IMG/VR virus record: IMGVR_UViG_3300037585_001448
Location: 29,141 to 93,140 of that record
DNA: 64,000 nt
Direction: 5' to 3' (one strand)
Source of the DNA: a virus
Positions 17,507 through 61,120 of the stretch are shown here, one piece after another (the stretch's first letter is position 1; every line of letters starts with the position of its first letter). The translations under genes and the position numbers were made by a program. A model generated the notes under the pieces. That model searched no databases, was not told the origin of the DNA, and worked only from the letters and a program-made list of their open reading frames with translations.

Positions 17507-17728
17507 CTACCGCCTCACTCTGGATCGGTTGCTCGCCATCTGGCGGCTCTGCTTCGATTCTTCCGCTTCGATCTGAACCAACGCGACCCATTCCGTCATC
17601 TCAGCCGACGACATGCGATCTAGGAGTTCGCCTACCGTCATGCTGAGTTCACGGGCTAGTCGGAAGTAGAAGCGTCGCTCAGGGTTGAGTCGTCCACGGC
17701 TGTCGGGGAAGCCGAGGAATCTTTTCCC
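17507..17728 (-). CDS. -1 frameshift extension of the tail assembly chaperone (gpGT-like)
   Basis: The -1 frame after GGGAAAA reads RFLGFPD...FRLARELSMTVGELLDRMSSAEMTEW. Confidence 0.85.
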   Translation of the reverse strand, partial: GKRFLGFPDSRGRLNPERRFYFRLARELSMTVGELLDRMSSAEMTEWVALVQIEAEESKQSRQMASNRSRVRR

Positions 17729-18093
17729 GCTTCGTCCACCGCCGTTTCTGACAATCCTGACGCCGCCATACAAGCGTTGGCTAGGTCATTGACGATTCGT
17801 GCGTTGCGCTCAAACAGCCACTCTTGGTCGCCTTCCTCAAAGACCAGTTCACCGGATTCCGGGTCGTAACAGGTCTGAGAGATGACATGCCACCACATGC
17901 CTTCGATCCGGTCAGGATCGTTGACGTTGGTGGAACCATCAGGGTTGGCAATCTCCGCGACAAACCGGGCGCGTGCCCGTGCGGTGATCGAACGAATCTC
18001 AACGGTGACACCCCACTCAGGGATCTCATAATCTTCGGTGCTGCTGTCGTCAGCAGCCTGAATCTTCTCGCTCAACTTGGACACGATGGTCAC
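17656..18093 (-). CDS. Tail assembly chaperone (gpG-like)
   Basis: IPEWGVTVEIRSIT motif; lies between tail tube and tape measure genes; has a slippery site. Confidence 0.85.
   Translation of the reverse strand: MTIVSKLSEKIQAADDSSTEDYEIPEWGVTVEIRSITARARARFVAEIANPDGSTNVNDPDRIEGMWWHVISQTCYDPESGELVFEEGDQEWLFERNARIVNDLANACMAASGLSETAVDEAGKDSSASPTAVDDSTLSDASTSD
17722..17728 (-). promoter_or_regulatory. Programmed -1 ribosomal frameshift slippery site G GGA AAA
   Basis: X XXY YYZ heptamer in the correct register (GAA GCG GGA AAA GAT) near the 3' end of the chaperone gene. Confidence 0.85.
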
Positions 18094-18115: not shown

Positions 18116-18523
18116 TTAGAACGTGGTGCGGGTTACCCCACCTGTGCATTGCAGGTCGATGCTGTATGTCACAACGTCGCCGACCGGGTTGCTGACGGAG
18201 TAGTTGGTGAGAATACATTCGCCCGTGTATTTGACGTAGCCGGAAGTGCTGCCCGCCGGGCCAAAGATGAACGTCCGGGTCGCAGGCTCCGTGCCGATGA
18301 TGTAACCGTCAATGGTTGCATCCCACAGGCCGCTCACCGAAATCGTCGCATCGCGAAGACCAACGATGTACGACTTGGAGGTCGAACCGAAAGCCGTCGT
18401 TTCGGCTGTGTCGATCGTTTCGGGAAAGTCAACACTGGTGAGAGTGTCAGAAATGTCGCGGCTGGTACCACCTGTGTCGTCAAGCGAGAAGTTGGTTGCC
18501 TTGCCGTGTACGAAGGTTGGCAT
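18116..18523 (-). CDS. Major tail (tube) protein
   Basis: 135 aa; AETTAFG...YIVGL...VGDVVTYSIDLQCTG; position. Confidence 0.8.
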   Translation of the reverse strand: MPTFVHGKATNFSLDDTGGTSRDISDTLTSVDFPETIDTAETTAFGSTSKSYIVGLRDATISVSGLWDATIDGYIIGTEPATRTFIFGPAGSTSGYVKYTGECILTNYSVSNPVGDVVTYSIDLQCTGGVTRTTF

Positions 18524-18535
18524 TGTTTGGTCCTC

Positions 18536-19303
18536 CTAGAACCTAGCGAAACTCACCATGAAGGTGATTGAACCGGATGACCCGGCACTGGTAGCGGTCG
18601 CTCGGACGTACCGGTTCACGGTCCCCGAGCAAACCACCATCTCCGATGTCTTGGCTCCTGCCCCGACAGCGGTGAATGAGATGAGATCGGCAGCCGACCC
18701 AAAGTCAGAAGCCGAATCATGTTGAACTTTGATAGTTGTGACGCCCCCGCCGACGCTGTTGACGGGAACGTGGAGCAGCGCGGCCCCGCCTGCGGTAGAG
18801 GCTGCCGAGCCGTCCACACCGGTCAACGCACCAAGGGCGTTGTAGTCGATCGACGTAGCCGTGGTCAACTGAACGCCTGCGGTGATCCCGTAGGTCATCG
18901 TCCCCAGCGTTCCAGAGTTGCTGGTGCCTTGAAAGTCGGCGGTGACCGTCGATACGTCTGCGACCGGGTTAGAGATCGCGTAGTTGGTTTCGTGAGTTCT
19001 GGCGATCGTGGCCCGGTTGCCGATCGTCCCGCCAGCCTCAGCAATCGTGATATTCGGTGCGGTCGCTGAACCGAGGATCGCTTGGAGTTCTTCATCAGAG
19101 CCGTCGGTGTCAGCGGTCCACATCCCGCTCATTGAAAGTGTGCCGTCGGCCAACCCCAAAATGTACGCCTTTGAGGAATCGCCAAACGAAGTCACCTCCG
19201 CTGTCTCGTTCGTGAGCGTCACATCAGCGGTGTTGAAGTACGGCGTCATCACGAACTCGTCCAGATAAACGTCGGTGCCTTTCCCATGTACGAACGTGGG
19301 CAT
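18536..19303 (-). CDS. Second tail-tube-like protein with C-terminal extension
   Basis: Same N-terminus MPTFVHGK and similar AEVTSFG..SKAYILGL, NYAISNPV motifs; ~120 aa extra. Confidence 0.7.
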   Translation of the reverse strand: MPTFVHGKGTDVYLDEFVMTPYFNTADVTLTNETAEVTSFGDSSKAYILGLADGTLSMSGMWTADTDGSDEELQAILGSATAPNITIAEAGGTIGNRATIARTHETNYAISNPVADVSTVTADFQGTSNSGTLGTMTYGITAGVQLTTATSIDYNALGALTGVDGSAASTAGGAALLHVPVNSVGGGVTTIKVQHDSASDFGSAADLISFTAVGAGAKTSEMVVCSGTVNRYVRATATSAGSSGSITFMVSFARF

Positions 19304-19585
19304 TTACTTACCTCCCGATTTCTTGGGGGTGGGTTCTTTTTCGGCGGGTTCTTCCTCGTAAGCCTCGTTGACATCCGGGGTATCCGGGTCGTCGGCTACG
19401 AAATGGCCGTTGTCATCGCGAGCGCGCTTCTTGAACGTGGATTCAAGTTCAAGGTACCCGGCACCGATACGCCAGTCTTTCTTGCCAGCAGCGATGTCTA
19501 CGACATCACCCGGCTCGTACCGTGTGCCAGCGACTTCGATGCCGCTGGTACCGGACTCGCCGCCGGTCACAACATACTTGGGCAC
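19304..19585 (-). CDS. Small virion-associated protein (93 aa)
   Basis: GGAGGAGG SD then GTG at 19585; RARDDNGHFVADDPDTPDVNEAY motif. Confidence 0.65.
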   Translation of the reverse strand: MPKYVVTGGESGTSGIEVAGTRYEPGDVVDIAAGKKDWRIGAGYLELESTFKKRARDDNGHFVADDPDTPDVNEAYEEEPAEKEPTPKKSGGK

Positions 19586-19641
19586 GGTGCCTCCTCCGTA
19601 GGGGCGTGAACCGATGATCCCAAAAGGGCACCGGGCCACGT

Positions 19642-19660
19642 TCCGGCCACAAAGGGCACT
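19642..19660 (-). promoter_or_regulatory. Candidate Com-type RNA operator AGTGCCC-N3-GTGGCCGGA, site 1
   Basis: 16/19 match to 61102..61120; immediately downstream of the Com-like gene. Confidence 0.55.
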
Positions 19661-19685
19661 TGTGTCGTTTGGTCGAACCCTAGCA

Positions 19686-19934
19686 CTACGCCCCCTGATC
19701 GCCTGTCATCTGACGGGCAGCGACAAGACGTTTAGCGGCAGCGTCGCTGAACGGTCGTTCGGTAGCCGCAGGAGGGGCCGACTCGTTGCGGCACTTGCAG
19801 CGAGAACACTTGATCGTCCACGGTGCCGTCACCCGTTCGGCCAGCAACCGTCCACAGTTCCCGCACCGGACCTTGAGGCGCGTTACCCGCTTCGCTTCTG
19901 GTACGAACTGCTCGGCATAGGCGTCGTCGTTCAT
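19686..19934 (-). CDS. Mu Com-like zinc-ribbon regulator
   Basis: VRCGNCGRLLAE...IKCSRCKCRN, typical Com-family C4 finger; start ATG 19934. Confidence 0.75.
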   Translation of the reverse strand: MNDDAYAEQFVPEAKRVTRLKVRCGNCGRLLAERVTAPWTIKCSRCKCRNESAPPAATERPFSDAAAKRLVAARQMTGDQGA

Positions 19935-19941
19935 CAGGCAT

Positions 19942-20349
19942 CTACGAGATCGTCTTCTGGCAGGTGAAGTTGATGGAGAACACCGCCCGGTCCTGACTGT
20001 CCCGCATGATCGGGAACGGCGACTGGATCGCTTGGATGCGTTCATACCGGGTGGAGGACAGGTCTTCGTTCGTGACAAGGTTCATCTTGTCGAACACATC
20101 CTTTGCCAGAGCACGGCCCGTCGAATACGACGACGCCCGGATCAGGGTTTGGACGTTGGGTTGTTCAATGACCGGAGCCGAGTTGTTCGACATGGTGTTG
20201 ATCGGACCCTGACCGCCGGTTTCCTGAACGGAGACACAGGTGTCGGGGTCGTCGGGGAGGCGACCAAGGAACAGGTTGGTGCCGAGCGTCAATGTTACGT
20301 TTGTGACATTTGCTGCGAGGTAGGTGCCGACCTCATCCAGCACGCTCAT
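19942..20349 (-). CDS. Tail terminator / minor capsid-3-like protein
   Basis: LFLGRLPDDPD..VSVQETGG; D...RAVFSINF; position. Confidence 0.75.
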   Translation of the reverse strand: MSVLDEVGTYLAANVTNVTLTLGTNLFLGRLPDDPDTCVSVQETGGQGPINTMSNNSAPVIEQPNVQTLIRASSYSTGRALAKDVFDKMNLVTNEDLSSTRYERIQAIQSPFPIMRDSQDRAVFSINFTCQKTIS

Positions 20350-21698: not shown

Positions 21699-22646
21699 CT
21701 AGGCCACGCAGTTTGAGAAGAAGTAACCCAGAGGCGATGAGACGACCTTGAAGTCCCATGCGCTCTGAATCTCAATGCGGTCGGCCCGCAGGTGATCCAT
21801 GCGGAACCTGCTGACTGCGGTGCTCGTACCCAGACCGCCACCAACTCCGTTCCAAACGAAGTTGTACCCGGCGCTTGGGGTCATCAGACCTGCGCTCGGG
21901 GCGACGTAGGCAAGGAGGGCGTCCTTGTCACCGATCTGCGCGTAGGAGTCAGTTGCCCCCTCCGCAGCGGAATCGTAGACGCCTGCCATGACGAGGACAC
22001 GATCGACACCAAGTACCTTGGCGATCAAGTCCGTGTTGATGGACTCTGCGCTGGTGTATTTGTACCTGTCCACGATGTCGCTGTGGTTACGCAGAATAGA
22101 GAAGACTGCGTAAGACACGATCAACGTGTTCGCGATGTAGCCGGTGTTCGTCAGGATCGTGTTGATCCCGGCCTGAACGTCTGCGATCGGAGTCGAACCC
22201 GAAGCACTCCAAAGAGTGCTAGGGGTGCTGTCCGTTCCCCAAACGCTGGTTGTGAACGCCGACGAGGCCCAATCCCGCTCCTGACGAATCAGCATTTGCT
22301 GAGACAGGAACCGGGTTGCATCCATGTCGGGGTTCAGTGGGCTGTCAGAGTTCTCACGAACCTGATCGCCGATGTCCTTGTGCAACGCGTAGACCGACGT
22401 TGAATAGGACGCCGTGCTCAGGCCGTATCCGCTACCCGCCGACTCCGTTCCATCGGCACGCCGCTGAACAGCGTCCCGCATGAAATCGGACTGGGTGTAT
22501 TGGAAGTAGAGGTCTGACTGCTTGTTGACAGGTACCGTCGGAAAGGCGTTCGGTGCAACGAAGGCGTAAGCCTCCTGCATGTACGCAACCGACATATTGG
22601 TTAGCACGCTGTCAACGTGTACGTCATTTCTGGTTGGCTGTGGCAT
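21699..22646 (-). CDS. Major capsid protein
   Basis: 315 aa; HVDSVLTNMSVAY N-terminus typical of lambda-E/Mu-type capsids; position. Confidence 0.85.
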   Translation of the reverse strand: MPQPTRNDVHVDSVLTNMSVAYMQEAYAFVAPNAFPTVPVNKQSDLYFQYTQSDFMRDAVQRRADGTESAGSGYGLSTASYSTSVYALHKDIGDQVRENSDSPLNPDMDATRFLSQQMLIRQERDWASSAFTTSVWGTDSTPSTLWSASGSTPIADVQAGINTILTNTGYIANTLIVSYAVFSILRNHSDIVDRYKYTSAESINTDLIAKVLGVDRVLVMAGVYDSAAEGATDSYAQIGDKDALLAYVAPSAGLMTPSAGYNFVWNGVGGGLGTSTAVSRFRMDHLRADRIEIQSAWDFKVVSSPLGYFFSNCVA

Positions 22647-29048: not shown

Positions 29049-29306
29049 ATGGCAACTCTGCTGAGGCCAGACCTCCCCACACCACAACTCTCCCGCGTGT
29101 TCGGGCATCTCAAAGACGACGCCCCATACGCCGACCTTGACGACGCCACCCGGACTGCGCTGGTCGATCGCGCCATGTCCCAAGGGGTTGCCTCGTTGAC
29201 ACCCTCAGAGCGTCAGATGATCGAAGACACCAACACCAACAGGCTCAAGAGGCTTCGACGCGGTGGGGTCAACTACGACATGCTCACCCAGCAACGAATC
29301 GACTAG
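29049..29306 (+). CDS. Small helical protein, candidate immunity protein
   Basis: TAGACT 7 nt before the ATG (leaderless); convergent with the MuF gene. Confidence 0.65.
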   Translation: MATLLRPDLPTPQLSRVFGHLKDDAPYADLDDATRTALVDRAMSQGVASLTPSERQMIEDTNTNRLKRLRRGGVNYDMLTQQRID

Positions 29307-56907: not shown

Positions 56908-59900
56908 TTATTCGACCTCTTCGATGGTGAGTCGGTACCACCCGGCATTTGCGTTGTTGTAGACGGAGGCACGCACCACATAGTCGCCCGCAGCCTGATT
57001 CGTGCGTTCGATGCGGCTGTCCCACTGATCGCTCACGTTGTCGATCACCGGGACGCCATCAGAGCAAGCGCCCCCGGTGTCGCAGTAGGTGATCGTCGGG
57101 GTTTCGTCCACATCCACGGCGGTACTCGGCGGGCTGATGCAAGCCGAGTTTGGTGAGCAGTCTCGCCCACCGTCATCGTCTAGTTCGATGAGGGTGCCAA
57201 CCGTGATCTGGCTTTGGTCTGCCGAATGGTCTCCCTCGTCAGAGTCCGTGTCGTAGTTCAGATAGATGTACGGGTCGGCAGCCTCGTTGTTCGTATTGAA
57301 CTGGGCACGGGTCAGGTTTGTTTCAGCGTCGATACGGATGCTCGTGGGTTCGTCCAGAGTGAACTGGATGTAGTCATAGTTGGTGCGGCTAGTAGACGAG
57401 ACGATGCACCAGTCGCCCATGCCCCTCCAACCACCCTCAGCGCAGCCTTCCTCAGTACCTACGGTTGCTGTCGTCGTGGACGCTTCCGTGTAGGGGTCTC
57501 CGACCGTGACCGTTGTCGCTTCGGGACTCCAACCGCGCACCGTTGAGCAACCCGCCTGTACCCCGTCAGAGAACGTGCAGGTCGTCATGTCCGACCCGGT
57601 GCGCCCCACGGCAGTCGTCGTGTCAACGAACGTATTGGTGACCGTCGTGGCAGTCGTGGTGTCCAGATGCCAGTGCCCGTCGTTGCTGTTGTGGGTCAGG
57701 ATTCCTGACTCGCTGGTCGTGGTCGCGGTTCCGGTCTGGGCGGTAACGGTGTTCGTGGAGATCGTCTCAGACAAGGGAGTGTCCGAGTAGGTGTAGGTAA
57801 TCGTCGGGACATGGACCGGTGCCACATACACCTCCACTATTCCTTGCTCAACTACGAAGTCGGGCAGCACCTCACCCGCGACATCGGCGTCAACGTCCCC
57901 TGCTTCTACGGCCACGACAACCGCGGCCCACCCGGTGAACCCCACCGGGACTACGCCCCAGTCGTCGTAGTAGGTCGGATCGTTCGCTGCGTCGTAGTCG
58001 TCCCATGTGCCGAAACCAGCAGGTGGATCTTCACAGGCTGATGTGCCCCTGCACTCAGCGAACCGATCCCATGATGGAACGGTCGTGGTTGGCGGCGGTG
58101 GCAGGGTCGTCGGCGGCGGCGGCACCGTGGTTGTGGGAGGCGGCACCGTGGTCGTCGGAGGCGGCTCGGTCGTTGTCGGCGGCGGGGCGGTAGTTGTGGG
58201 AGCGGGCGGCTCGGTTGTCGTAGGCGGTGGAGCAGCCGTGGTGGTCGGCGGCGCAACTGTAGTTGTCGGTGGTGGGGTCGTCGTCGTCGGTGGGGCCTGT
58301 GTCGTAGTCGGTGGGGGAAGAGTCGTCGGAGGGGCAACGGTCGTCGTCGGTGGCGGGAGGGTTGTCGGAGGGGCAGCCGTCGTTGTCGGCGGCGGGAGAG
58401 TCGTCGGAGGCGACGGCTCATCTATCACCTCAGGCTGAAGGTCTGGTTCCCAAGCGGCAACCACCACCCGGTCGTCTGCCTGTTCTTCGATGAACACCTC
58501 AGTCCAACCCTGAGGCTCCTCGTCCCACCACTCCTCCTCCTCAACAACGGCGAACGTCTCCACCACGGCTTCGGCCTGTTCCTCAAACCACTCGTCGTCG
58601 TAGTCAACCTCGTCCCACTGTTCGTCTTCCCAGTAGTCGTCTTCGACTATGAGCATTTCGGCGAGATCAGGGGCGTCGTCAAACTCGGCGGGAGGTTCCC
58701 ACTCGTTACGTTCTTCGATCTCTTCGACATACGACTCGCCTAGCACTTCTTCCACGCGGTCTTCGGCTACCGCTTGAAAGTATTCGGCGTCCGACGCAAC
58801 CCACGCTTCGACCTCTTCTTCCTGCTGGTCGATCACTCCGGTGTCTTCATCGAAGGTGAGTTCCAACACGACAGGTGCTTCCGGCACCGGAGGTGTGGTG
58901 GGTTCCGGCGCTGCCGGGTCGGTGGGCACCGTCGGGGCCGGGGCGTCCACTTGGTAGGCGGTCATGTCTACTTCGACTGCCGCTAACTCCACTCCAGCGT
59001 TGTCGGCTATGGCGATGGACAGCACCGAAGGCTGTTCAACCACAACCGGTTCGTCTGGGGTTGGTTCCCCGGCTGGCGGCTCAACGGGGGGAGCCGCGAC
59101 GAACTGGACGGCGACCTGTTGGCCCTGCTCTATCTCTATCTCAATCTCAAGGGCGTCCACCGCAATCGCGACAGTTGCTTCTTCGATGTCGGCAACCGCG
59201 ACGGCTTCCTCGGAGAACTGAATCAGCGACGTTGATTCACGCTCCGGTTCCGGTTCGCCCGGTACCACCGGTTCAGGTTCAGGCTCCGGTTCGGTGGGAA
59301 CTTCCGCTTCGATCTGGACAGATCGCTCGTCGTCAAGGATGAGAAGCGAGAACGCCTGCGTGGTATCTTCGTCGGGTTCCTGCTCCAGCGGGGCTTCGGT
59401 ACTTGAGGGGCTACTTGGGCGGCTTGGTTCGACCTCCGCTGGCGCGGGAACGTCAATAACGTCAACGTCGGCGGTGAAGTCTTCAACACCCGGCGGTAGG
59501 AACACCAGCACCGGATCAGCGGTGCTTGGCCCTGAGATCAGGTACCGGTACGTCGCCCCTTCGATCTCGTTGACGAACGTCCCGTCGTAGTAGCCGAGCC
59601 GGTCACCGTCCTCGGTTTCGACCTGAATGGACATCTGCTTGTCGCCTGATGCGGCGACGGTGAGCATCGTTCCGGCTTCCTTGTCTTCGGTAGGGCAGAA
59701 CCCGCATGTGAATGGTCCTGACCGTGAGGTCATCGGGGTCAACTCCATCGTTCCTGCGCCACCACCCCACGCCTCAGACGCTTCGGTCGGGTTGGTTGCT
59801 GCTAGGGCGTAGGCCCAACCGTTCTCGTCTACGTCGATCCACCGATCCGAGGTCGGCCAGTTGGAGTCGTAGATGTAGATGCGCCACCGGTCGCCGTCAG

Positions 59901-60654
59901 TGGTGACCTTGTATGGGGTGACCGCGTGGCCTCCGTGCTCCGAGTAGATGCCGACGGTGTAGCCAACAGTTGGTTCCCCGGCTTCGGCTGCTGCGAAGTC
60001 TTCGTACAGGATGCGAGCCAGCGCCAGCGGGGACAGTTCAAGGAACACTGACGCCTGCTCCTGTACCTCGGTGGCGAACTGGGTGACGTACCAGTAGGCG
60101 ATCTCCGACAGGAGCGCCGGGTCGGTCTTGACCAGAGCGGCAACCTCTTCGACGTTCTGGAACGACGACAGGGTGGCTGGGTCGTTGGCGAGTCGTAGCG
60201 ACAGGACGGTGAGACCTTCACACAGGCCACCGCGCATCGACCGGTTGGCCTGCTGGATCAACTGGAGGATCACCGGGTACGGCGTACATTCGTTGTCCAC
60301 CACGCTGGAACAGACCTGCGTGTCGCCGTAGAAGCGGCGGGCCATGTTGACGGTCAGTTCGGCGGGTGCTTCGCCGCCTCCGAAGTTCTCAAATGAGAAG
60401 CCGTCCCGGTCTGGGGTGTACCGCAGCGACGCCCCCACCGCTGTGGCTTCCGGGGTCGGCTCGGCAACCGTCGGCGTAGTCGAAAGCGGGGTGTCCGCGG
60501 GCACCGCTGGGACGCTGGTTGTTGAAGTGCCCTGAGCCGGTTCTGGAGCGGTCGTAGTAGCCGCCTGAGGGGTCTCAGCAGGGGTAGCGGCTTTCCCCCC
60601 GCAGGAGGCTGCCAGAAGCGCCGTAAGGACGGCTAGCCATAGACGCCGGGTCAA
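56908..60654 (-). CDS. Large lipoprotein (1248 aa): papain-like C-H-D domain, Pro/Thr stalk, C-terminal PPC-like domain
   Basis: Lipobox LAASC; GLCEG / GGHAV / YDSN; PPTTT repeats; ADPYIYL...DDDGG...GDYVVRAS...YRLTI. Confidence 0.75.
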   Translation of the reverse strand: MTRRLWLAVLTALLAASCGGKAATPAETPQAATTTAPEPAQGTSTTSVPAVPADTPLSTTPTVAEPTPEATAVGASLRYTPDRDGFSFENFGGGEAPAELTVNMARRFYGDTQVCSSVVDNECTPYPVILQLIQQANRSMRGGLCEGLTVLSLRLANDPATLSSFQNVEEVAALVKTDPALLSEIAYWYVTQFATEVQEQASVFLELSPLALARILYEDFAAAEAGEPTVGYTVGIYSEHGGHAVTPYKVTTDGDRWRIYIYDSNWPTSDRWIDVDENGWAYALAATNPTEASEAWGGGAGTMELTPMTSRSGPFTCGFCPTEDKEAGTMLTVAASGDKQMSIQVETEDGDRLGYYDGTFVNEIEGATYRYLISGPSTADPVLVFLPPGVEDFTADVDVIDVPAPAEVEPSRPSSPSSTEAPLEQEPDEDTTQAFSLLILDDERSVQIEAEVPTEPEPEPEPVVPGEPEPERESTSLIQFSEEAVAVADIEEATVAIAVDALEIEIEIEQGQQVAVQFVAAPPVEPPAGEPTPDEPVVVEQPSVLSIAIADNAGVELAAVEVDMTAYQVDAPAPTVPTDPAAPEPTTPPVPEAPVVLELTFDEDTGVIDQQEEEVEAWVASDAEYFQAVAEDRVEEVLGESYVEEIEERNEWEPPAEFDDAPDLAEMLIVEDDYWEDEQWDEVDYDDEWFEEQAEAVVETFAVVEEEEWWDEEPQGWTEVFIEEQADDRVVVAAWEPDLQPEVIDEPSPPTTLPPPTTTAAPPTTLPPPTTTVAPPTTLPPPTTTQAPPTTTTPPPTTTVAPPTTTAAPPPTTTEPPAPTTTAPPPTTTEPPPTTTVPPPTTTVPPPPTTLPPPPTTTVPSWDRFAECRGTSACEDPPAGFGTWDDYDAANDPTYYDDWGVVPVGFTGWAAVVVAVEAGDVDADVAGEVLPDFVVEQGIVEVYVAPVHVPTITYTYSDTPLSETISTNTVTAQTGTATTTSESGILTHNSNDGHWHLDTTTATTVTNTFVDTTTAVGRTGSDMTTCTFSDGVQAGCSTVRGWSPEATTVTVGDPYTEASTTTATVGTEEGCAEGGWRGMGDWCIVSSTSRTNYDYIQFTLDEPTSIRIDAETNLTRAQFNTNNEAADPYIYLNYDTDSDEGDHSADQSQITVGTLIELDDDGGRDCSPNSACISPPSTAVDVDETPTITYCDTGGACSDGVPVIDNVSDQWDSRIERTNQAAGDYVVRASVYNNANAGWYRLTIEEVE
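58082..58415 (-). repeat. Pro/Thr low-complexity repeats (PPTTTxx)n
   Basis: Degenerate ~21-24 bp units in the lipoprotein stalk. Confidence 0.85.
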
Positions 60655-61091
60655 CGACGGCGACGGGATTGGTACCAGAACAAGAAGCCGACCACCACGA
60701 CCAGAACCGCAGCGACGACGACGACGGTCATGGACCCGCCGGGTGCTCCACTCATGTCGATGGAGAAGTTCTTGGTGCCCCCGCCGAGCAGATCGCCTTC
60801 GGCTTTCATATCGGCGACGGCTTCTTCAAGTTGCGCGACTTGGAACTCCAGTTGGGCTTTGGAGTCAGAGTGGTCGCTGAGGAATCCGAACGCACCTCCG
60901 AAGGTCGCAGGCAACCCGACGATGTACGCGATGTTGTCCTTGATCTTGTCGATCAGGCTGCTGGCGTGTTCAACGCGGGCCGTGATCCCCGGAGGGGGAG
61001 GCGGTGGAAGCGGCGCAGAAGATGTTGCGAAGTGCTCTTCGATGGTTCGCTGGATGCTCCGCAGGGCTTCCGTTGTTTGATCGTTGTCCAT
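60651..61091 (-). CDS. Membrane protein (2 hydrophobic segments)
   Basis: Overlaps the lipoprotein start; C-terminal TM + RRRR. Confidence 0.65.
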   Translation of the reverse strand: MDNDQTTEALRSIQRTIEEHFATSSAPLPPPPPPGITARVEHASSLIDKIKDNIAYIVGLPATFGGAFGFLSDHSDSKAQLEFQVAQLEEAVADMKAEGDLLGGGTKNFSIDMSGAPGGSMTVVVVAAVLVVVVGFLFWYQSRRRR

Positions 61092-61101
61092 CGTGGCTCC
61101 A

Positions 61102-61120
61102 TCCGGCCACGACGGGCACT
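61102..61120 (-). promoter_or_regulatory. Candidate Com-type RNA operator AGTGCCC-N3-GTGGCCGGA, site 2
   Basis: Matches 19642..19660; overlaps a stem abutting the ATG at 61091. Confidence 0.55.

Follow-up and report, generated by a model that had tools for sequence, protein, structure and literature searches.

A conserved GUGNCC repeat at three late gene starts of a siphovirus lineage as a candidate operator for a Com-like zinc-ribbon protein

Introduction

To our knowledge, Com has been studied almost only as an activator of one accessory gene, mom. Com-hairpin pairs already serve as tools for recruiting proteins to RNA, and a second, orthogonal Com-RNA pair would be useful in that role. In vitro selection (SELEX) with a Com zinc finger yielded GAG(N)2CC, mostly in the tandem form NGAGNNCC(N)2-3GAGNNCC, and the element proposed to be read by Com is CC(N)2-3GAG, presented in a hexaloop adjoining the hairpin that holds the GUG start codon of mom (PMC6483171). 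In Proteobacteria, Com-like mini-genes precede genes for llpA bacteriocins, tailocin lysis enzymes, levansucrases and hin1523-type DNA adenine methyltransferases (PMC6240691, PMC3299994), and there are many other PF10122 genes without an assigned role or operator (PMC6240691). A literature search gave no published account of an operator of the Com type on tail genes, and Com-type control of tail genes through a GUGNCC operator at three late units, as considered below, would be previously undescribed.

Here we analysed a 64,000-nt stretch of viral DNA (hereafter the window; positions 29,141 to 93,140 of the IMG/VR record IMGVR_UViG_3300037585_001448) in which a Com-like gene is followed by a cluster of GUGNCC hexamers. 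The locus resembles Mu Com/mom in that a small CxxC...CxxC ribbon of the PF10122 family is encoded in a late phage operon and the candidate target occupies the 5' region of a late gene that begins with GUG; hairpins are also predicted over the Shine-Dalgarno sequence (SD) or start codon in several clades of relatives. The repeats share with the Com SELEX motif a triplet, a short gap and CC, in tandem and with spacers of 2-3 nt (PMC6483171), but they read GUG-N-CC and not GAG-NN-CC, with U for A and a gap of one base instead of two. Unlike in Mu, the targets would be tail and membrane-protein genes and not a DNA-modification gene, each genome would have three sites and not one, and the motif occurs in 2-5 mostly unstructured copies, whereas in Mu it sits in one hexaloop (C-G closed). 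In addition, regulator and target often appear to be transcribed separately, and the position of one site on an SD and start codon suggests repression. The protein itself is extended by a further conserved segment at the N-terminus and by a C-terminal helix.

The Proteobacterial pairs are similar in that a PF10122 mini-gene stands beside the gene that it is presumed to control (PMC6240691, PMC3299994). However, the regulator there lies directly upstream of a single cargo gene and has no defined operator, whereas in these phages of Actinomycetota a multi-copy candidate operator is found at several core virion genes. TRAP, HutP and CsrA-type regulators also use several short repeats with 2-3 nt spacers in a 5' leader or on the SD, and one of the sites described here resembles CsrA-style SD occlusion, although those proteins have unrelated folds and are ring or dimer oligomers of known structure.

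Results

The window is contained in a 93-kb virus record, and its minus strand, on which all of the following features lie, carries a siphovirus structural block. At the head end is the major capsid gene (21699-22646), followed by connector genes, a tail terminator gene encoding 135 aa (19942-20349; PF12691, E 7e-16) and the Com-like zinc-ribbon gene encoding 82 aa (19686-19934; PF10122 and phrog_6417). An intergenic gap of 100 nt separates the Com-like gene from a small conserved gene of 93 aa (19304-19585) with a weak DUF7210-like N-terminal beta domain, which is the first gene of the tail-tube operon. It is followed by the gene for the major tail protein (255 aa, 18536-19303; phrog_9522, E 3e-43) and by a second, paralogous major tail (tube) protein gene (135 aa, 18116-18523; PF06199; phrog_10528, E 1e-42). 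The next gene (17656-18093 as the ORF is listed, with the true start probably at 18084) was assigned to a tail-assembly chaperone because it lies between the tube genes and the tape measure, overlaps a downstream ORF and has a conserved N-terminus; the tape measure, of 1397 aa, lies 3' of the chaperones. Elsewhere in the window, a gene for a 146-aa protein with a C-terminal membrane helix (60651-61091) has on its 3' side a 1248-aa lipoprotein-like gene (56908-60654). The closest cultured relatives of the window phage are, weakly, Arthrobacter phages. The tube gene also recurs in metagenome-assembled genomes labelled Ilumatobacteraceae, Acidimicrobiaceae and Acidimicrobiales, and the hosts of the lineage are therefore probably aquatic Acidimicrobiia.

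The zinc finger of the Com type that was originally predicted was borne out by profile searches. Against PF10122 (Zn_ribbon_Com) the 82-aa protein scored 24.6 bits over residues 20-50 (E 1.7e-5), exceeding the gathering cut-off of 22.9 by a small margin, and a whole-genome search returned the same score; the protein also matches phrog_6417, annotated as 'translational regulator'. Judged from these matches, it is a member of the Com zinc-ribbon family. Its cysteines C24, C27, C43 and C46 form two CxxC knuckles that are invariant in 10 homologues, and homologues are 59-94% identical. In the AF2 model, residues 18-51 have a pLDDT of ~90 and form strands at 18-23, 30-36, 40-42 and 49-51, with a C-terminal helix at 64-77, so that the ribbon, whose cysteines would bind zinc, is modelled with confidence. 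PDB fold searches with the Com-like and the small protein gave no significant match for either, a profile search of PDB sequences gave generic zinc-ribbon matches only, and a profile search of genome contigs with the Com-like alignment gave no match. The gene order from tail terminator to Com-like gene was constant in all loci compared.

The leader of the tail-tube operon carries four tandem GUGNCC hexamers (site 1; 19626-19659, minus strand; N = C, G, G, C). These are GTGCCC at 19659-19654, GTGGCC at 19650-19645, GTGGCC at 19639-19634 and GTGCCC at 19631-19626, separated by TTT, GGAAC and CG (3, 5 and 2 nt). The four GTG(C/G)CC hexamers had been noted after the Com-like gene in the original prediction, and all of their coordinates proved correct base for base on the minus strand. 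A fifth GTGCCC copy is made up of the GTG start and second codon of the small gene (19585-19580). Counting both strands, the motif occurs 93 times across the window against 110 expected; since it shows no overall enrichment, it is the local cluster that constitutes the signal. From the observed counts, the expectation per window is ~2e-4 for clusters with four copies in 34 nt, and runs of at least three GTGNCC at steps of at most 14 nt were found in this leader alone when the window and 527 kb of fetched loci were searched.

About 90 loci were gathered through homologues of the Com-like and small genes. An array of 2-5 sense-strand GUGNC(C/U) hexamers with spacers of 1-5 nt (mostly 2-3) lies upstream of every small-gene homologue except in the most distant clade, L037/L039, in which one hexamer and a degenerate copy precede the gene. 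Across homologues the last hexamer ends 29-51 nt upstream of the small-gene start codon. The motif is thus conserved at homologues, as the original prediction would have it, with the array kept before the small gene in at least 13 leader types that range from 43 to 69% G+C and are otherwise hard to align. When 12 leader types were compared, GTGNCC was the top gapped 6-mer, with at least two copies in 11 of them and 36 copies in total (the runner-up reached 3 of 12), and its reverse complement occurred once, a bias towards one strand. A MAFFT alignment showed the leaders to be homologous, with an ancestral hexamer order of N = A, U, C, G, and in the two-hexamer clades the first two array positions are degenerate (GUGCGC, GUCGCC). 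Because of this homology, the copies did not arise as independent inventions, and the informative part is their persistence while the flanks diverge. The sequence comparison bears out the hexamers as a genuine conserved cis-element, one that in every case accompanies the first gene of the tail-tube operon.

Other readings of the repeats were tried and rejected. They do not behave as part of an upstream ORF, since the 1-5 nt spacers shift the frame both between and within clades, and pairing of the hexamers with the 3' tail of 16S rRNA as an extended SD (e.g. GUGAUCC), assessed by eye, required bulges. An Rfam scan of 19300-20000 at E <= 10 returned only a chance match (E = 8).

Two further sites were found by a genome-wide doublet search. 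Site 2 (GUGACC-AUC-GUGUCC; 18079-18093, minus strand) covers the SD and the likely true GTG start (18084) of the chaperone gene. Among 22 distinct sequences drawn from all main clades, AT-rich and GC-rich alike, neither hexamer changes; the 3-nt spacer differs (atc, att, acc, gaa, caa, aga, taa), and divergence of the protein begins immediately afterwards. In L083 the inter-hexamer bases are TAA, so the second GTG must be the start codon, and hexamer 1, which overlaps the SD AGGAG, is consequently non-coding. Hexamer 2 joins the start codon to a serine codon that keeps its third base even in AT-rich genomes. The site lies inside the operon, 22-28 nt downstream of the previous gene, and no -10-like element was seen at it. 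This placement offers what we regard as the strongest argument for translational control over control of transcription initiation, and repression looks more natural here than activation. In 168 kb of representative loci, every doublet fell at site 1 or site 2, bar two in an Arthrobacter phage.

Site 3 is a doublet, GUGCCC-GUC-GUGGCC (61105-61119, minus strand), located 13 nt before the ATG of the 146-aa membrane-protein gene and 41 kb from the Com-like gene in the 93-kb record. It is kept before the homologous gene in five clades (L090, L092, L093, L094/L122 and G001). GCCAC, immediately 5' of the start codon, is a possible pairing partner for hexamer 2, whose base N co-varies with the partner (GUGGC/GCCAC, GUGAC/GUCAC, GUGGCC/GGCCAC and GUGUCC/GGGCAU). 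Against shuffles these pairings are individually marginal (p 0.04-0.25), and we consider the pairing of hexamer 2 with start-proximal bases to be suggestive. More distant homologues of the gene had no doublet, and their records, which are 24-82% complete, had no PF10122 gene. In G001 and G014, which have terminal repeats, all sites lie within one genome. We also observed that the 1248-aa lipoprotein-like protein has long Pro/Thr-rich and acidic repeats, and that its gene and that of the 146-aa membrane protein are kept as a unit in G001.

At site 1, the translation initiation region of the small gene (19583-19597, minus strand) is composed of the SD GGAGGAGG, GGCAC, which is the complement of GUGCC, and the GTG start. 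The original prediction had proposed that CGGTGCC (19633-19627) pairs with GGCACCG (19591-19585), the last G of which is the first base of the GTG. The complementarity is exact, but the pairing is absent from the minimum-energy fold and confined to the window clade, and we rejected it as a conserved feature. In the minimum-energy fold, hexamer 4 is used in a predicted hairpin, CCGGUG-CCC-UUUU-GGG-AU-CAUCGG (19611-19634, minus strand), which competes with the hexamer-4/SD pairing and which near relatives retain via one-sided changes only. When 101 nt were folded, hexamer 1 paired with GGCAC upstream of the GTG start, in competition with hexamer 4 of the original prediction for these bases.

Folding of the leader as a whole, a check put forward together with the prediction, did not favour it: stability was not unusual (z = 0.03), which rules out an unusually stable riboswitch-like fold in the window leader. 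Start regions lie in local hairpins that exceed shuffles at z = 2-3.9 in seven leader types (eight sequences) and at z = 1.4 in another; in the window clade the start region is no more structured than shuffles (z = 0.7). With the hexamers forced to be single-stranded in 18 leaders, the change in SD accessibility ranged from -5 to +8 kcal/mol with no consistent sign, so that this simple test of a thermodynamic switch, in which freeing the hexamers would open the SD, showed no uniform direction. Some clades have a hairpin with a GUGAYU loop that hexamer 4 opens, and it is retained through compensatory changes between L059 and L062. No single structure common to the leaders of all clades was conserved, and most GUGNCC copies are outside hairpin loops in the predicted folds. 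Within the small gene itself, the window, L059 and L012 clades have GUGACC, one more sense hexamer, at codons 4-5 of VVTGG (19570-19575, minus strand). The remaining clades have GUCACC there; this is the complement of hexamer 1 (GUGAC), and the two are paired in the folds of L058, L060 and L066.

The last codons of the small gene are GGA GGU AAG, followed by UAA, and these codons provide the SD for the major tail gene, whose ATG is abutted or overlapped by the small-gene stop in all loci. Because of this arrangement, control of the small gene should carry over to the tube protein through translational coupling, which supports the description of the element as gating the tail-tube operon. The small protein has a weak DUF7210-like match and a disordered tail, and its N-terminal 50 residues are modelled as a small beta domain. 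Its invariant C-terminal GGK is encoded by GGAGGUAAG (19304-19320, minus strand, and all related loci), which is the SD of the major tail gene. Since GGAGGUAAG doubles as an SD and the stop abuts or overlaps the ATG, part of the conservation of the small protein appears to be a nucleotide-level constraint.

That the Com-like gene stands directly before the operator is true of some clades only, the window clade among them. Elsewhere the two are parted by 1-3 kb of opposite-strand genes or, in L086, by a terminator with a 16-bp stem and then a -10-like TACACT, and sites 2 and 3 are distant from the Com-like gene in every genome. The arrangement of com and mom, in which the regulator is immediately upstream of its target on the same transcript, is thus not general among the relatives. 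Four of five records with the Com gene more than 3 kb away still contain one, and in each of the complete genomes G000, G001 and G014 a single PF10122 gene accompanies the repeats. Such co-occurrence does not count as independent evidence, as the loci represent one related lineage with conserved gene order. The small DUF7210-like gene is linked to site 1 more tightly than is the Com-like gene. In Arthrobacter phages with a Com-like gene after a terminator-like gene, the small gene is absent and there are no repeats nearby. The Com-like ORF of Arthrobacter phage Shrooms (L001, 4001-4117) falls in an unannotated gap (genes 31/32 of the deposited record), and that of Kovu (gene 37) and Ottawa (gene 5) is annotated as hypothetical.

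A possible extended -10, TGcTAGGGT, overlaps the stop codon of the Com-like gene (19677-19685, minus strand); it was read from the sequence and is weak. A single TAnnnT hexamer is present 7-20 nt upstream of hexamer 1 in 17 of the 18 site-1 and site-3 instances, and a consensus sigma-70 promoter scan of the window returned nothing at the site 1 leader. No terminator-like site was found on the gene strand 3' of the hexamers in the window or in L062, and the terminator of L086 lies upstream of the promoter, not 3' of the repeats. Since opposite-strand genes or a terminator intervene and TAnnnT precedes hexamer 1, the array probably forms the extreme 5' end of a distinct tail-operon transcript, and any action of the protein would be in trans. 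A strong intrinsic terminator directly 3' of the Com-like gene was seen in L086 (1218-1255), with equivalents in L077/L087, and is followed by a TAC(C/A)(A/C)T -10-like hexamer, so that in these loci the Com-like gene is the last gene of the head-connector transcript. The opposite-strand cassette of small genes, 1-3 kb in length (L059 800-2950; L067 495-2870; L014-L032) always occupies the same junction, and its content differs between clades.

Discussion

We see an even chance that the Com-like protein is a trans-acting, RNA-level regulator of initiation that reads tandem GUGNCC in late mRNAs and so ties the tail genes to the head block. What at present best connects the protein with the repeats is the match of the array layout to the Com SELEX motif; we infer that the Com-like protein is the binder, that it acts on RNA and in which direction it acts at each site. 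According to this model, the protein, made from the last gene of the head-connector block, would read the GUGNCC repeats in trans. Site 1 would lie at or near the 5' end of the tail-tube leader, 30-50 nt before the small gene that is coupled to the major tail gene, and site 3 at the 5' end of the membrane-protein/lipoprotein leader. At both of these, binding may reshape start-proximal hairpins and thereby alter initiation, as Mu Com does at mom, with activation the likeliest effect. At site 2, the bound protein would be in competition with the ribosome and would keep chaperone production low, and the outcome would be that tail-gene output is tied to expression of the head block. The Com-type translational switch on tail genes that was first proposed therefore retains its Com-family protein, its conserved cis-element, its SELEX-like layout and predicted start-occluding hairpins in several clades, but its specific pairing and a consistent effect on the SD were not supported. 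We are more doubtful of the wider proposition that Com-family zinc ribbons are widespread post-transcriptional regulators of late genes that read tandem G(A/U)G-N(0-2)-CC, with one protein here activating the tail-tube and membrane-protein operons and throttling the chaperone.

P2 Ogr and P4 Delta are zinc-finger activators of late genes, and it might be supposed that a phage or host transcription factor, possibly a zinc ribbon of that kind, binds the direct GTGNCC repeats as a DNA operator in the initially transcribed region of late promoters. We consider this unlikely. The TAnnnT hexamers at 17 of 18 instances fit it, a promoter at this point is required in relatives whose upstream region has opposite-strand cassettes or a terminator, and direct repeats at ~8-9 bp spacing are compatible with a DNA-binding oligomer. 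However, the distance from the -10 to hexamer 1 is variable (7-20 nt), the Ogr/Delta family (PF04606) is absent among the Pfam matches of the Com-like protein at E <= 0.1, and the covariation of base N at site 3 with a downstream partner is an RNA-level feature. Site 2 is again difficult to accommodate, being intra-operon, 22-28 nt after the previous gene, without a -10-like element and aligned exactly on the SD and start codon. The same position of site 2 on the SD and start codon also argues against protein-controlled antitermination, in which the zinc ribbon would read the repeats in nascent RNA and allow the polymerase to pass a terminator. The order of promoter, sense tandem hexamers and hairpin is what such a system would have, including the GUGAYU-loop hairpin after hexamer 4 with its compensatory changes between L059 and L062, yet the hairpins are of 4-6 bp and have no U tract, and no terminator-like site follows the hexamers in the window or L062; we hold this to be very improbable.

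An RNA operator might also serve another protein, either the small DUF7210-like protein in autoregulation or a host RNA-binding protein, with the Com-like gene as a mere syntenic neighbour. This would explain why the array always accompanies the small gene when 1-3 kb can separate it from the Com-like gene, and the N-terminal beta domain of the small protein weakly matches SH3/KOW-like folds, a class in which RNA binders occur. Those matches fall short of significance, though (best E = 0.5), an autoregulator explains sites 2 and 3 no better, and the wide range of host G+C makes a single conserved host factor less likely; taken with the agreement between the repeat layout and in vitro selection by the Com zinc finger, these points lead us to think another binder improbable. 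If there were no trans factor at all, and the hexamers were a self-contained leader structure or inherited non-regulatory sequence, the homology of the leaders with their ancestral N = A, U, C, G would account for part of the conservation, and some hexamers do pair with SD-proximal complements. It would not account for the survival of the hexamers across flank divergence in leaders of 43-69% G+C, for the same word at three unrelated gene starts, or for a non-coding hexamer and a synonymous position that are both invariant at site 2, and no single structure is conserved across clades. We regard this as the least probable of the explanations.

Returning to regulation of initiation by the Com-like protein, GUGNCC represents a short, tractable operator word at three gene starts, with natural variation across relatives of 43-69% G+C. 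It makes testable whether Com-type control extends to core virion genes, whether it includes repression besides activation, and how a zinc ribbon might read tandem repeats. If true, the model would explain the coupling of head and tail synthesis in siphoviruses of aquatic Actinomycetota and the level of the chaperone relative to the tube protein.

Apart from the question of regulation, the tail-tube operon contains tandem paralogous tail/tube genes (18116-19303, minus strand) whose products of 255 aa and 135 aa begin with a common N-terminus, MPTFVHGK. The 135-aa tube protein is 63-95% identical across all clades, and its 255-aa paralogue varies far more.
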